DNA of 64,000 bases from Hungateiclostridiaceae bacterium UBA1305 (GTDB lineage Bacteria > Bacillota > Clostridia > Acetivibrionales > DTU013), in NCBI GenBank assembly GCA_002307275.1, contig DBTX01000078.1:42-64041 (forward strand), written 5' to 3'. The position numbers and the translations under genes are program-made. Positions 26,322-29,258 of the stretch are shown here, piece by piece. Under the pieces are notes generated by a model, which was not told where the DNA came from, made no database searches, and saw only the letters and a list, made by a program, of their open reading frames with translations. The stretch's first letter is position 1, and each line of letters begins with the position of its first letter.

Positions 26322-26855
26322 TCATATCAGCCTTTTTTTGATGGCCTCATCTGCCGTTCTGCGCCCATCCGCAATATCCATCAGCACGTCATTACATCTG
26401 TCGAGGGTATTCAGAAAGATGCCCAGCTGAATCTCAATCAAGGAATACCCGACACGCTCATCCATATTGTCAGTGAGGATAATGCTGCTTTTATAATACA
26501 GCATTTTTTTCCTTTCATCTATGCCGAGGGCTCCTCCCGGAATTTTGGGATTGAGCCTCAAAACGGCACGGGCCAGTTCATTGCAGGTGCCCGGTGAAAG
26601 GCTCTCCCTCAGGCAGGAAAAAAGCTGAAGGACATTGTAGCCGTATTGCTCTATTTCTTCCTCTTTTCTTGGCAAAAAGGAGGCTTCCACTTGAAGCTTA
26701 TCTTCCCTGTCTCCCAGATTTTCCGGGGAAATCAGCAAAACTGCCTCCCTGCGTTCTCCTTCCGGCAGGACGGTCTCTGTTGAAAACCCAAGGGCCCCAA
26801 GCTCCTGAGCAATCCTGTCGAGCAGTCTTTTCTCCAGTTCCTTTCTCACACCCAT
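26322..26855 (-). CDS. Hypothetical protein, type-III-chaperone/YbjN-like by pattern; paralogue of the upstream gene
   Basis: 177 aa from MGVRKELEK, with a GGAGAGG RBS; its ATG follows the upstream TAG by 1 nt. LQVEASFLP...YNVLQLFSCL...LRLNPKIPGGALGIDERKKMLYYKSSIIL...LDRCNDVLMDIADGRRTADEAI aligns by eye with the neighbour. Confidence 0.45.
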   Translation of the reverse strand: MGVRKELEKRLLDRIAQELGALGFSTETVLPEGERREAVLLISPENLGDREDKLQVEASFLPRKEEEIEQYGYNVLQLFSCLRESLSPGTCNELARAVLRLNPKIPGGALGIDERKKMLYYKSSIILTDNMDERVGYSLIEIQLGIFLNTLDRCNDVLMDIADGRRTADEAIKKRLI

Positions 26856-26856
26856 A

Positions 26857-27420
26857 CTATTGCCTCTCCCCGCGGTTATCTCCCGATATGCAGTACCGTA
26901 TCGCCTCATCCGCTCCCAGCCGCCCGGCAGCCACTTCGGTTATCGCGTCCGTATAAGTGTCCAGCGTATGAATATATACTGCGAGCACAGCATCCATCAT
27001 CATGATAACCTGCTCTTTGTTCATATTCTGCAATAAAGGAAACCGATACTTCATACATAATATCTTATCATTTTCTCCAAGCGCAATGTTTCCAATAGGA
27101 AGCACAGTATTTAAATAATTAATAAACTTCAAAAGGCTTTCTGCTGTTTCCTGCCTGATATCATTCCCGAGTATGGAAAAAAACTGTATATAATTGAAGC
27201 TTGCATCCTTACGCTGCTCTTCCTCAATGGGCAGAAAGCAAATCTCCAGCTTCACGCTTTGCTCCTTCTCCCCCAGATCGTCCAGGATAGTCACAAGTAT
27301 TTGAACCGGCATCTTTTCTTCCGGCTCGAAAAGCTTGAATGGCATCTCCAGCTTTCCAATCTCCTCTGCGAGCGTTTCTATCGTATTTCTCTCAAATTGC
27401 TGCCAATCCTTCATCATCAT
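26857..27420 (-). CDS. Hypothetical protein, type-III-chaperone/YbjN-like by pattern; paralogue of the downstream gene
   Basis: MMMKDWQQFERNTIETLAEEIGKLEMPF...VKLEICFLPIEEEQ...FNYIQFFSIL...INYLNTVLPIGNIALGENDKILCMKYRFPLL...LDTYTDAITEVAAGRLGADEAI. AGGGAGG RBS lies just upstream of the triple ATG (27420-27412), so the exact start is uncertain. Confidence 0.45.
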   Translation of the reverse strand: MMMKDWQQFERNTIETLAEEIGKLEMPFKLFEPEEKMPVQILVTILDDLGEKEQSVKLEICFLPIEEEQRKDASFNYIQFFSILGNDIRQETAESLLKFINYLNTVLPIGNIALGENDKILCMKYRFPLLQNMNKEQVIMMMDAVLAVYIHTLDTYTDAITEVAAGRLGADEAIRYCISGDNRGERQ

Positions 27421-27473
27421 CTTCCTCCCTTCATTCAGGTGCAAGTATTCATCACATACCATATATTACACGA

Positions 27474-29258
27474 TCACCCGTTGACTGCGGATAATTTCCC
27501 GGCAATGGCCTCCTCCGACGGAAGGTCATTGTCCAGCTGCAGCTTGAAGCCCAGCTGCTCTATCAGCAGCCTGTACTTGTCCTTTTCCTCGCCGCTTTCC
27601 GCATTATGTCTTATGGTGGCTGCATATTTCAATAAAATTGCACTGAACATCTCTTCACCCGTCGAATATCCCAGAACTTTCCGGGCAAGCTCTCTCGTCG
27701 CATCGTTGTCAACCGCTTTTCCCTTGCCTCTGTTTATCCCTGCAATAACATTGTTGGTCTTATTTTTAAGATCATTTGTTTTAATAAATTGGTCAATATT
27801 ATTCTTCTTCCGTTTTGATTTCATTATATTCTTTAATATTACAGTGTTAAACAATCCTGCCACCGAACCTACAGCGCCTATTCCGGCTCCTACAAGCCCC
27901 GTCCATTTGGCAAATTGCCCCACATCGCTTGACGAATCTACTCCAAACATTTTTGACATGTTCTTTGTGAGCCCTGTAACATTTCCAACCATGCTGGTTC
28001 CCGATTTGAAAAAATCGAAACCTGCCGAAGTGGTATTCAGCGTCTTTGCCTCCAAAGCAACATTTGCCATTTTTTTAAACTCCTCGGAGCTTTTGCCGTC
28101 ATTCATAGCCTTTTTAATCTGTTTTGAACTGTTTATATTTTCAAGGCCGGTAGAATAGCCCCTCACCAGATCAAGCGTGTCCTTTGTGGCTCCCAGCACA
28201 TTTTTCACGGAGCCAAGGCCGCCTGCGACCTGCTTGCCTGTATCCTGGCCTTTTTCATTTCCTGCAAGGCTGCTGATTGAGCCTCCCATGTCGCTCATCG
28301 TACTGCCCATACTGAAAACGGATTTCCCCGAAGCAAGTAAATTTGAAGCAAGTGTAAGCTTCTGCTTTTGTCTGGTATTATCCGTTGTAAATTTATCATT
28401 TTTTTTCATATCCCGTATATTTTTATAGACAGATATTCCGCTGCTTCCAAGCGAAAGTGCGTCGCTTCCCAGACTTACAGATTGGGCGCCGATGTCGATT
28501 GAATCCGAAACAGTATCAGACATCCCCACTTTCCCTCCAAGACCGCTTTTATCAAACAGGCCTATTCCGGTGGAACCAAGGGAACTGACTCCGCTGACTA
28601 CATCCATCCCGGTCTGCACTTTATCAAGCGCGGTTGATCCATAAAAGTCTTTTTGCTTTCCATTCTTTTTATACTTCGACGCCTGAAGTGCCTGCCAATC
28701 GTCATCACTATCCTCCTCCCACGGCTCCTCAAGCATTTTCTGCTCCTTCTTGGAAGGCGATTTTACATCATTCCCGGATTCCCCGGGACTTTCGGTATCC
28801 CCGGTATTTTCCGTATTCTCCCGTTCCTTATCCAGCTTTTTAAATTCACTGTTCTTAACGATAATCTTTTTTGCAAGCTTCTTAACCGGTGACGGAAGCG
28901 GAGCATCCTCCGGCTCTCCGCCGTCATCAAGATCTTCGCTTTCTTCCGACTGGTCATCTTCCAGTTCTTTTTCCAGTTCTTCGTCCGTTAATTCTTCTTC
29001 ATCCTTATACGGCTTGACCTTCAAGCTATCGGAGGGTTCGCTCTCTGTTCCCTCCTCCCCTCCGGTATCCTCATGCTCTTCCAGCTCTTCCTCGGTCAGG
29101 GGCTCGGGCGAAGCATTTGCTTCAGGAATCGCAAGCTCCTTCAAGTGCTTCAGTGTAACATTCTGGATCTCGGGGTTTTTAGCCAGTTCCTCGACTTTAT
29201 TTTCATCATCTTTCTTCTCGGATTTACTGCTAAATAAATTTTTGAAAAAATTCGCCAT
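27474..29258 (-). CDS. Candidate CIS payload/effector: ~200-aa extremely acidic disordered N-terminus, Gly/Ser-rich central region, glycine-zipper-like hydrophobic segment, helical C-terminus
   Basis: 594 aa from MANFFKNLF; the first ATG at 29267 abuts the GGAGG. The N-terminus is rich in E/D (EEELEEHEDTGGEEGTESEPSD...EESEDLDDGGEPED). The middle has GVSSLGSTGIGLF/GSDALSLGSSGISVY-type repeats. FAKWTGLVGAGIGAVGSVAGLF looks like a glycine zipper. It lies directly downstream of the AAA+ ATPase. Confidence 0.45.
   Translation of the reverse strand: MANFFKNLFSSKSEKKDDENKVEELAKNPEIQNVTLKHLKELAIPEANASPEPLTEEELEEHEDTGGEEGTESEPSDSLKVKPYKDEEELTDEELEKELEDDQSEESEDLDDGGEPEDAPLPSPVKKLAKKIIVKNSEFKKLDKERENTENTGDTESPGESGNDVKSPSKKEQKMLEEPWEEDSDDDWQALQASKYKKNGKQKDFYGSTALDKVQTGMDVVSGVSSLGSTGIGLFDKSGLGGKVGMSDTVSDSIDIGAQSVSLGSDALSLGSSGISVYKNIRDMKKNDKFTTDNTRQKQKLTLASNLLASGKSVFSMGSTMSDMGGSISSLAGNEKGQDTGKQVAGGLGSVKNVLGATKDTLDLVRGYSTGLENINSSKQIKKAMNDGKSSEEFKKMANVALEAKTLNTTSAGFDFFKSGTSMVGNVTGLTKNMSKMFGVDSSSDVGQFAKWTGLVGAGIGAVGSVAGLFNTVILKNIMKSKRKKNNIDQFIKTNDLKNKTNNVIAGINRGKGKAVDNDATRELARKVLGYSTGEEMFSAILLKYAATIRHNAESGEEKDKYRLLIEQLGFKLQLDNDLPSEEAIAGKLSAVNG

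Follow-up and report, generated by a model that had tools for sequence, protein, structure and literature searches.

The 64,000-nt stretch of contig DBTX01000078.1 analysed here (hereafter the window), from Hungateiclostridiaceae bacterium UBA1305, encodes a complete contractile injection system (CIS) whose main operon closes with three genes: one for a 594-amino acid (aa) protein, which we call X594, and two for small proteins, paralogues A and B. We favour, with a rough probability of 55%, the reading that X594 is the cognate membrane-active cargo of this Bacillota CIS, an effector of the tape-measure-related type, and that the products of the two small genes serve as cytoplasmic chaperones dedicated to it. 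Judged from sequence, the payload idea is consistent with the position of the gene, with features at the N terminus of X594 that resemble extracellular CIS (eCIS) signal peptides and with a remote homologue that is fused to an eCIS_core domain. The small proteins are candidate chaperones because the basic, membrane-seeking half of X594 would need shielding and two acidic proteins of chaperone fold are encoded directly downstream.

The three genes lie consecutively on the minus strand, as open reading frames (ORFs) at 27474–29267, 26857–27462 and 26322–26909 in the ORF listing of the window, and scans with Pfam, NCBIfam and PHROG profiles place them at the close of the long minus-strand operon that codes for the CIS. 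A first-pass annotation of the window, made from the letters and the ORF list, had proposed internal starts giving proteins of 594, about 187 and 177 aa, and the placement of ribosome-binding sites agrees: GAGGAGG lies 9 nt 5′ of the ATG at 29258 (594 aa), GGGAGG stands ahead of an ATG cluster at about 27420 (185–187 aa), and GGGGAGAGG lies 7 nt 5′ of the ATG at 26855 (177 aa). A single nucleotide separates the stop of paralogue A from the start of paralogue B, which fits translational coupling. The same annotation had put the trio directly downstream of a loading ATPase. The X594 gene indeed begins 27 nt 3′ of an AAA+ ATPase gene with WHD and AAA domains in Pfam, and the CIS locus around them has genes for sheath, tube, gp25, baseplate J and Pvc16_N. 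The translation of the ATPase has a winged-helix N-domain, a first AAA domain with a degenerate P-loop (GPPGAGKR) and a second with GPPGTGKT and a DEAD Walker B motif, a three-domain plan shared with Pvc15 as described (PMC11495950).

The two small proteins are clear paralogues, as the first reading by eye had it, with 28% identity over 184 aa (E = 7e-28). The suggested resemblance to CesT/YbjN-type secretion chaperones proved correct at the level of fold. An AlphaFold2 model of paralogue A, built from a 6-sequence alignment, reaches a predicted local distance difference test (pLDDT) score of 86.9 and a predicted template modelling (TM) score of 0.83, and has a mixed α/β fold of the α-β-β-β-α-β-β-α type, with elements in the order H-E-E-E-H-E-H-E-E-H-H. 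Its top Foldseek matches in the PDB (E = 1e-4 to 1e-1, TM 0.5–0.65 on the target) include the YbjN-family proteins PA14_16140 (8q8o), DR_1245 (4h5b), YbjN (6vu7) and AmyR (5fr7) and the class I type III secretion system (T3SS) chaperones ExsC (3kxy), SicP (1jyo), VecA (9ux0), CesT (5wez), SycE and SycH; 1k6z is also among them. For paralogue B, the fold is assigned through its 28% identity to the modelled paralogue A.

Sequence profiles run from below threshold to threshold across orthologues. Against the Pfam YbjN model (PF10722, cut-off 22 bits), paralogue A scores 14.1 bits, below the cut-off, and paralogue B has no match; the orthologue of paralogue A in a related locus, L001, scores 23.7 bits, above it. 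Five further orthologues score 13–19 bits against YbjN or CesT_Tir_1, a marginal but consistent level of support, and the orthologues of paralogue B match CesT_Tir_1 and YbjN weakly. Paralogue B is better conserved across loci than paralogue A.

Like the class I T3SS chaperones (CesT, SicP, SycE, ExsC, VecA) and the YbjN family (YbjN, AmyR, DR_1245, PA14_16140), the paralogues are small, acidic (pI 4.55 and 5.05 for A and B) and of mixed α/β structure; neither has a hydrophobic segment, and their acidity stands against the basic character of the C-terminal half of X594. As with class I T3SS chaperones, their genes adjoin that of the presumed client. Heterodimeric class I chaperones exist, SycN/YscB being an example, and provide a parallel for the tandem paralogues. 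There are also differences. At 177–187 aa the paralogues are longer than the matched structures (117–152 aa) and than these known proteins (about 130–150 aa), with two extra C-terminal helices; the partner machine is the AAA+ ATPase of a phage-tail-like system, with no type III system here; and similarity in sequence to T3SS and YbjN proteins is marginal, the window paralogues falling below Pfam cut-offs.

X594 itself is built of regions with distinct properties, for which we used composition, homologue alignments and an AlphaFold2 model from an 8-sequence alignment, read by region. The first-pass annotation had described about 200 N-terminal residues as acidic and disordered. The acidic composition stands, with 62 Asp/Glu against 27 Lys/Arg in residues 1–200 and a pI of 4.16 and net charge of −31 in residues 56–200, as does the disorder further in (pLDDT below 50 in residues 49–242). 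The first 45–55 or so residues, however, are conserved among homologues and predicted to be helical (helices at residues 2–41, pLDDT up to 77), so the N terminus is not uniformly disordered. Residues 1–55 carry the motifs MxxFF..., LAK[ND]P[ED]V[QK][NQ]V and SPxPL, which are conserved in the relatives P0002, P0003 and P0010, and in each locus this N-terminal motif is found in the X594-type gene only. The first 35 residues have a mean hydropathy of −1.12, and two aromatics, F4 and F5, fall within the first 8. Judged by the published criteria for eCIS signal peptides (PMC11297309), the leader fits: it is hydrophilic, rich in disorder-promoting residues and has an aromatic among its first 8 residues, although the modelled helices depart from pure disorder.

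Beyond the acidic linker the protein turns basic (pI 9.2 for residues 201–450 and 9.6 for residues 451–594). Residues 201–400 are Gly/Ser-rich as first described, with 29–31 Gly+Ser per 100 residues, and long helices are predicted at residues 249–438 (pLDDT 50–78). The loosely repeated G(S/T)xxxGxxG units reported for this region did not hold up. The exact pattern G[ST]xxxGxxG has a count of 0 and GxxxG occurs at chance level relative to shuffles; a loosened motif is seen 3 times against 0.7 expected (p ~0.03), and the sole enriched spacing is that of small residues, [GS]xx[GS]xxx[GS], at 13 against 6.2 expected (p ~0.005). A true internal repeat was also considered and rejected, the two halves of the region aligning no better than shuffles (local alignment z 0.7).

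The glycine-zipper-like stretch FAKWTGLVGAGIGAVGSVAGLFNTVIL at residues 449–475, picked out in the first reading, is the only hydrophobic peak in the protein. It contains G457xxxG461xxxS465 and G464xxxG468, its G-x-G core aligns across the X594 family, and AlphaFold2 gives it low confidence. The helical tail, also proposed at first sight, is predicted by the model at residues 480–590 (pLDDT 67–82) and bears the motifs LGYxSxDEM...YAATIR...KYRxLIExLGFK...LPSxEAIAxKL. X594 matches no Pfam model at E up to 0.1, the Gly-zipper model included, and no NCBIfam model; single sequences and the profiles A1, A2 and A8 gave chance-level matches only among PDB sequences. We rejected a type VII LXG toxin as an identity for X594, which lacks an LXG domain; Pfam scans found no type VII machinery domain in the scanned ORFs of the window. 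Foldseek matches of X594 to α-pore-forming toxins and tape measures had probabilities of 0.1–0.4 and are not used as evidence.

X594 belongs to a rare family. A search of 5.8 billion proteins returned two relatives (57% and 38% identity), and a profile of residues 190–594 run against 1.84 billion representatives returned nine proteins. Two profile matches, P0015 and P0016, were judged probably compositional because the match was limited to the Gly-rich middle region and left out the tail. A profile search with the small proteins led to the same loci as the X594 relatives and a few more. A scan of genome contigs yielded a single metagenome-assembled genome (MAG), from a Bacillota bacterium; with the tail alignment as query, metagenome and viral contigs yielded no relatives.

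These searches define seven distinct locus types, namely the window, L001/L004, L002, L003, L005/L010–13, L006 and L007; in each, one or two chaperone-like genes come after an X594 relative. The full order of ATPase, X594 homologue, paralogue A and paralogue B recurs in L001 (equivalent to L004, the Bacillota MAG), L002, L005 and L010–L013; in L010–L013 the downstream genes are unrelated (acyltransferase, V-type ATPase) and the trio is still attached to the ATPase. In L003 the X594 homologue is cut by the contig end and both paralogues follow, and in L007 the ATPase precedes a 630-aa X594 homologue and one small protein. L006 departs furthest, with Tail_P2_I and a 528-aa gene followed by an 813-aa X594 homologue and one small protein. 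Every X594 relative with a readable context lies in a CIS locus, with the ATPase adjoining wherever that stretch is on the contig, L006 excepted; P0012 and P0013 were left out of this count, their contigs being too short to judge. Homologues thus do not lie mainly outside CIS loci, and the cargo idea of the first-pass annotation is not refuted on that score. The small chaperone-fold proteins are never seen apart from the X594 family.

The L006 locus (NCBI GCA_022410535.1, positions 8399–13004) has further features of its own. There the X594-type module is fused to eCIS_core/DUF4157 and to QMQPESG(T/I)VQRQEEEEEEL repeats, which are rich in Glu; the X594-type gene has no ATPase gene beside it, and the 528-aa gene ahead of it is unmatched.

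Conservation differs by region. The tail is the best-conserved part of X594, with 67, 56 and 42% identity to P0002, P0003 and P0010, and the acidic linker, which varies in length, is the least conserved (45, 28 and 23% to the same three proteins, its closest relatives). Taken over its full length, X594 diverges at about twice the rate of the core of the machine (57/38/28% identity against 78/64/55% for the ATPase).

All members of the family have in common a C-terminal module that consists of a hydrophobic Gly-rich segment, a K/R run directly after it, conserved in every member, and a helical tail of about 100 residues with the shared motifs LGYxSxD, YA....., L[IV]..[LM]G[FL] and P....I..K[LM]. 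In the remote relatives P0011–P0014, which share the tail, the hydrophobic part is a clear two-helix transmembrane hairpin, for example GGALVIASATNPVGWVILGVAALIGGIGAVYNWYKKRQRKK (maximum Kyte–Doolittle hydropathy over 19 residues, KD19, of 1.86–2.22); the X594 segment aligns with these hairpins, and the K/R runs stand behind them. Two of these relatives connect the module to CIS biology. P0014 carries eCIS_core (PF13699, formerly DUF4157; E = 4.9e-29), a proposed marker of CIS effectors and their partners (PMC11297309; PMC13277306), upstream of the shared C-terminal module. Residues 151–312 of P0012, spanning hairpin, K/R run and tail, match the tape-measure profiles phrog_1533 (E = 2.2e-7) and phrog_1686 (E = 4.6e-4).

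We propose the following route for X594. The protein would be made in the cytoplasm, where an acidic dimer of YbjN/CesT fold, here probably a heterodimer and in one-copy loci a homodimer, would keep its helical half, zipper segment and tail soluble and off the producer membrane; the acidic linker of X594 may itself help solubility. The chaperones would bind the shared C-terminal module and not the leader, since L006 and L007 differ in the N-terminal region yet keep a small protein. The N-terminal 55 or so residues would serve as a packaging signal recognised by the adjacent Pvc15-like ATPase; Pvc15 itself has N-terminal signal peptides as its targets and can stabilise or unfold the cargo (PMC11495950). 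The ATPase would strip off the chaperones and either feed X594 into the tube lumen or dock it at the baseplate. Sheath contraction would then expel X594, whose hydrophobic hairpin would enter a lipid membrane while its polybasic run binds anionic lipids; the outcome may be pore formation, depolarisation or something milder. A precedent is Sle1 of Streptomyces, a CIS cargo related to tape measures that has a transmembrane helical hairpin and is packaged and translocated to lipid membranes (PMC13277306).

Several observations weigh against X594 being a membrane-active cargo held by chaperones. First, every related locus has the family at this one position, unlike typical swappable payloads, a pattern that equally fits a structural or adaptor part. 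Second, the hydrophobic segment is borderline as a membrane helix (KD19 maximum 1.62; crude Hessa sum +3.5 kcal/mol) and is weaker still in the three closest relatives (KD19 1.0–1.46). Third, the tape-measure link comes through one remote homologue: X594 and its other six relatives have no tape-measure profile match in PHROGs, and the C-terminal module has no tblastn match in 50,697 phage genomes. Fourth, eCIS_core/DUF4157 (PF13699) has no match in X594 or any scanned ORF of the window, although the marker is not universal among payloads. Fifth, the overall pLDDT of the X594 model is 50.9, a poor value that leaves it usable by region, and Foldseek with this low-confidence model found nothing at E ≤ 0.001 among PDB and viral structures. 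Finally, some of the YbjN-family structures matched by paralogue A are named as regulators in their titles (8q8o, 5fr7, 6vu7).

The lineage-wide fixed position of X594 leaves room for a structural or membrane-adaptor role, and the best-surviving alternative, which we nonetheless consider unlikely, is that X594 is a built-in part of the machine: a CisA-like membrane adaptor or trigger, or a tape-measure-like or plug component docking in the baseplate, kept soluble by the small proteins until assembly. Besides that position in all related loci, a docking surface would be expected to be well conserved, as the tail is, and the P0012 profile similarity to tape measures would fit a part of this kind, as would the true transmembrane hairpins and positive-inside K/R run of the remote homologues. 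The overall plan is also like that of CisA, with a long unstructured N-terminal region, a hydrophobic segment, plus a C-terminal domain that is conserved (PMC12237407). However, CisA, from Streptomyces coelicolor, is a true single-pass membrane protein whose C-terminal domain, behind its one helix, has an extracytoplasmic solute-binding-like fold (PMC12237407), whereas X594 has a weak hairpin-like segment, a polybasic run, an all-helical tail and chaperone-like partners. In the X594 subfamily the segment looks too weak for constitutive insertion, and soluble partners resembling secretion chaperones would be unexpected for a co-translationally inserted membrane protein. The locus further has two better-placed tape-measure candidates, proteins of 1042 and 312 aa, and X594 evolves at about twice the rate of the core proteins.

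That X594 is a toxin and the small proteins are immunity (antitoxin) proteins, protecting the producer or its sister cells instead of acting in loading, seems to us quite improbable. A toxin gene followed by small, tightly linked genes is the typical effector–immunity order, and the number of small genes varies between one and two. For the glycine-zipper toxin EsxX, neutralisation by distinct immunity families that work in different compartments is reported (PMC12744356), a precedent by which a cytoplasmic binder can count as immunity. The fold of the small proteins nevertheless matches secretion chaperones and the YbjN family and no known immunity family. Protection from an incoming membrane-inserting toxin is usually the task of a membrane protein, and the paralogues are soluble and acidic, with no hydrophobic segment; chaperone and immunity roles can, moreover, overlap.

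A holin-like lysis or release factor that frees particles from the Gram-positive producer, with the small proteins as inhibitors timing lysis, is very improbable: the place at the close of the operon and a hydrophobic hairpin with a highly charged basic stretch behind it do resemble holin topology, and P0001, P0013 and P0014 have weak PHROG holin matches (E = 0.03–0.045), but these matches are not significant, 594 aa with a 200-aa acidic N-terminal region is far from holin size, no Pfam cell-wall hydrolase domain occurs in the scanned ORFs of the window or the genes called in related loci, and the fusion of the module to eCIS_core in P0014 points to cargo.

Compared with known systems, a membrane-active X594 cargo would come closest to Sle1/Sle2 of Streptomyces lividans and Tme of S. 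davawensis (PMC13277306, PMC11126660). The likeness, drawn from published descriptions, lies in a CIS-linked cargo mostly of long helices and disordered stretches, with a possible hairpin near the C terminus (borderline in X594, clear in P0011–P0014), in links to DUF4157/eCIS_core (here through P0014) and, remotely, to tape measures (here through P0012), and in being kept within a bacterial lineage instead of being swapped between loci. The X594 family differs in occurring in Bacillota and in lying 3′ of the ATPase rather than upstream of the sheath gene; it has an acidic disordered linker in place of a large coiled coil, and no DUF4157 partner gene was found among the scanned ORFs of the window. 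X594 lacks a recognisable enzymatic domain such as the Tme nuclease, and its YbjN/CesT-fold partners are absent from the descriptions in those papers. X594 is a candidate member of the Sle1/Tme class, the tape-measure and DUF4157 links running through remote relatives only.

Payloads of the PVC and Afp systems (PMC11495950, PMC10097599, PMC11297309) are likewise encoded distally in the operon, next to an AAA+ ATPase of three domains, a position that the X594 family repeats in L001, L002, L005, L007 and L010–13, and they likewise have a hydrophilic leader rich in disorder-promoting residues with an aromatic within the first 8. In PVC loci, however, payloads follow pvc16 and vary between operons, whereas here the opposite strand carries the cap gene (Pvc16_N) and one cargo family is kept lineage-wide. 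The X594 leader differs from PVC and Afp leaders in being followed by an acidic linker of about 145 aa. Pvc15 is itself described as the chaperone (PMC11495950), with no further small chaperone named in these papers for PVC payloads.

The same logic of a chaperone shielding a Gly-rich hydrophobic membrane segment before loading applies to Eag (DUF1795) chaperones and prePAAR type VI effectors (PMC12881460). The chaperones there are of another fold family and the shielded segment is N-terminal, whereas in X594 it is C-terminal and the PAAR-like DUF4280 protein is separate (128 aa). The type VII glycine-zipper depolarising toxins TelE and EsxX (PMC10434224, PMC12744356) resemble X594 in coming from Bacillota and in having a C-terminal zipper segment and a helical N-terminal targeting region; X594 differs in having neither an LXG domain nor a Gly-zipper Pfam match and in having a conserved 107-aa tail behind the segment. 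In the literature searched, no paper links YbjN or CesT with contractile injection systems and none describes the X594 family in Bacillota.

Read as cargo and chaperones, the X594 trio would combine a new protein family with an accessory of a new type in one CIS cargo module. Most CIS lineages are without known cargo and little is described for the CIS of Gram-positive Bacillota; the locus offers a clear cargo candidate with a recognisable logic of leader, linker, membrane module and chaperones. If the small proteins do chaperone X594, they would be the first proteins of secretion-chaperone fold tied to a phage-tail-like injection system, and the poorly understood YbjN family would gain a concrete client. 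The recently proposed tape-measure-related class of CIS effectors would extend from Actinobacteria to another phylum, and the arrangement could inform the loading of hydrophobic cargo into engineered injection systems. A bolder and more tentative proposal, which we hold to be possible but on balance doubtful, is that this Bacillota CIS lineage uses an undescribed loading route, in which a YbjN/CesT-like pair holds a tape-measure-derived membrane-inserting cargo and hands it over to a Pvc15-like unfoldase as in type III secretion. Since no locus of the lineage lacks this cargo, its insertion into membranes would then be the core output of the system.

The features of the trio and of its neighbours are collected below.

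Features of the X594 trio and the surrounding CIS locus, in window coordinates
Feature	Position	Strand	Basis
AAA+ ATPase, 735 aa, Pvc15/Afp15-like	29286..31493	-	Pfam WHD PF22977 E 2.4e-22; AAA PF00004 E 2e-37
X594, 594-aa candidate cargo, stop codon included	27474..29258	-	ORF and ribosome-binding site
X594 residues 1-55, conserved N-terminal segment, candidate packaging signal	29094..29258	-	Homologue conservation, AlphaFold2 helices, hydropathy
X594 residues 56-200, acidic disordered linker	28659..29093	-	pI, charge, pLDDT
X594 residues 201-448, basic, Gly/Ser-rich, long predicted helices	27915..28658	-	Composition, AlphaFold2
X594 residues 449-475, glycine-zipper-like hydrophobic segment FAKWTGLVGAGIGAVGSVAGLFNTVIL	27834..27914	-	Hydropathy, alignment
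X594 residues 476-487, polybasic run KNIMKSKRKKNN	27798..27833	-	Sequence, alignment
X594 residues 488-594, conserved helical tail	27477..27797	-	Conservation, AlphaFold2
Chaperone-like paralogue A, 187 aa, pI 4.55	26857..27420	-	AlphaFold2, Foldseek, weak Pfam YbjN
Chaperone-like paralogue B, 177 aa, pI 5.05	26322..26855	-	Identity to paralogue A
DUF4280 PAAR-like spike-tip protein, 128 aa, last gene of convergent operon	25911..26297	+	Pfam E 1.9e-37; NCBIfam IglG-like E 1.9e-15
Pvc16_N tail-terminator/cap protein, convergent operon	24494..25096	+	Pfam E 8.2e-24
Sheath gene	46639-48384	-	Domain scans
Tail assembly chaperone	45669-46070	-	phrog_508

The minus-strand operon also codes for tube proteins, a CIS_tube protein, a gpD-like hub, a Phage_base_V spike, gp25, two Baseplate_J proteins and Tail_P2_I, together with the 1042-aa repetitive protein and the unmatched 312-aa protein. 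The 1042-aa protein (41836–44964, minus strand) is in the tape-measure position, 3′ of the tail assembly chaperone and a second tube-like gene, and matches nothing in Pfam or PHROG. Its sequence consists of about five modules of roughly 120 aa (...GRADSRxDVQLYGYADRQTDGSGTGAVMDYRNRFAxE...GVFGLSKVKELITRAWKKTGEKIPETE...) and 16-aa tandem repeats of the DRQTSSQTNGQLYGNT type. In the DNA these appear as 48/96-bp arrays at 42888–43159, a region where GC content is higher and AT skew stronger than anywhere else in the window. The 312-aa protein (31490–32428, minus strand), rich in Glu, Arg, Lys and Gln, occupies the Afp14/Pvc14 position 5′ of the ATPase, which it overlaps by 4 nt. It has no family match, keeps its syntenic place in L001, L002, L005 and L010, and is fast-diverging (54, 46 and 36% identity); we regard it as a second candidate length-determining protein or another candidate cargo. 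Because the 1042-aa and 312-aa proteins hold better positions, X594 is unlikely to be the tape measure of the system itself.

A convergent plus-strand operon (15581–26297) ends 24 nt from the end of paralogue B. Its last genes, for Pvc16_N, an unmatched 274-aa protein and DUF4280, all lie outside the main operon, and it also codes for a HAMP/Cache protein (891 aa), a MORN-repeat protein (499 aa), a secreted TolC-like OEP protein (688 aa) and an 872-aa HlyD-like protein with a copper-amine-oxidase-N wall domain. The seven-gene convergent arrangement is kept in L003 and L007 and partly in L002, which suggests an envelope-spanning accessory apparatus tied to the CIS. The wall-domain genes of copper-amine-oxidase type near the CIS fit a Bacillota producer, as does the nearest relative. 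In L002, tblastn recovers an intact DUF4280 gene at 12863–13246 on the minus strand, 76% identical to the window copy, where the stored call is a 94-aa plus-strand ORF; that call is therefore probably wrong.

Several regulators are encoded together upstream of the sheath gene (48692–49432, plus strand; 53181–56966 and 57151–59087, minus strand), comprising two LytTR response regulators, a GHKL sensor kinase and a 1261-aa STAND-type AAA_16/TPR/LuxR regulator, which are candidate controllers of CIS expression. Promoter and terminator scans gave sites no more numerous than in shuffled sequence. The GC skew changes sign at about 26 kb and about 60 kb, tracking gene orientation. The flanks of the region (1–14700 and 59399–64000) encode sugar-acid and carbohydrate metabolism (UxaC, UxaE, glycoside hydrolase family 4, aldo-keto reductase, iron alcohol dehydrogenase), and such ordinary metabolic surroundings indicate that the CIS region is chromosomal, in a saccharolytic organism.

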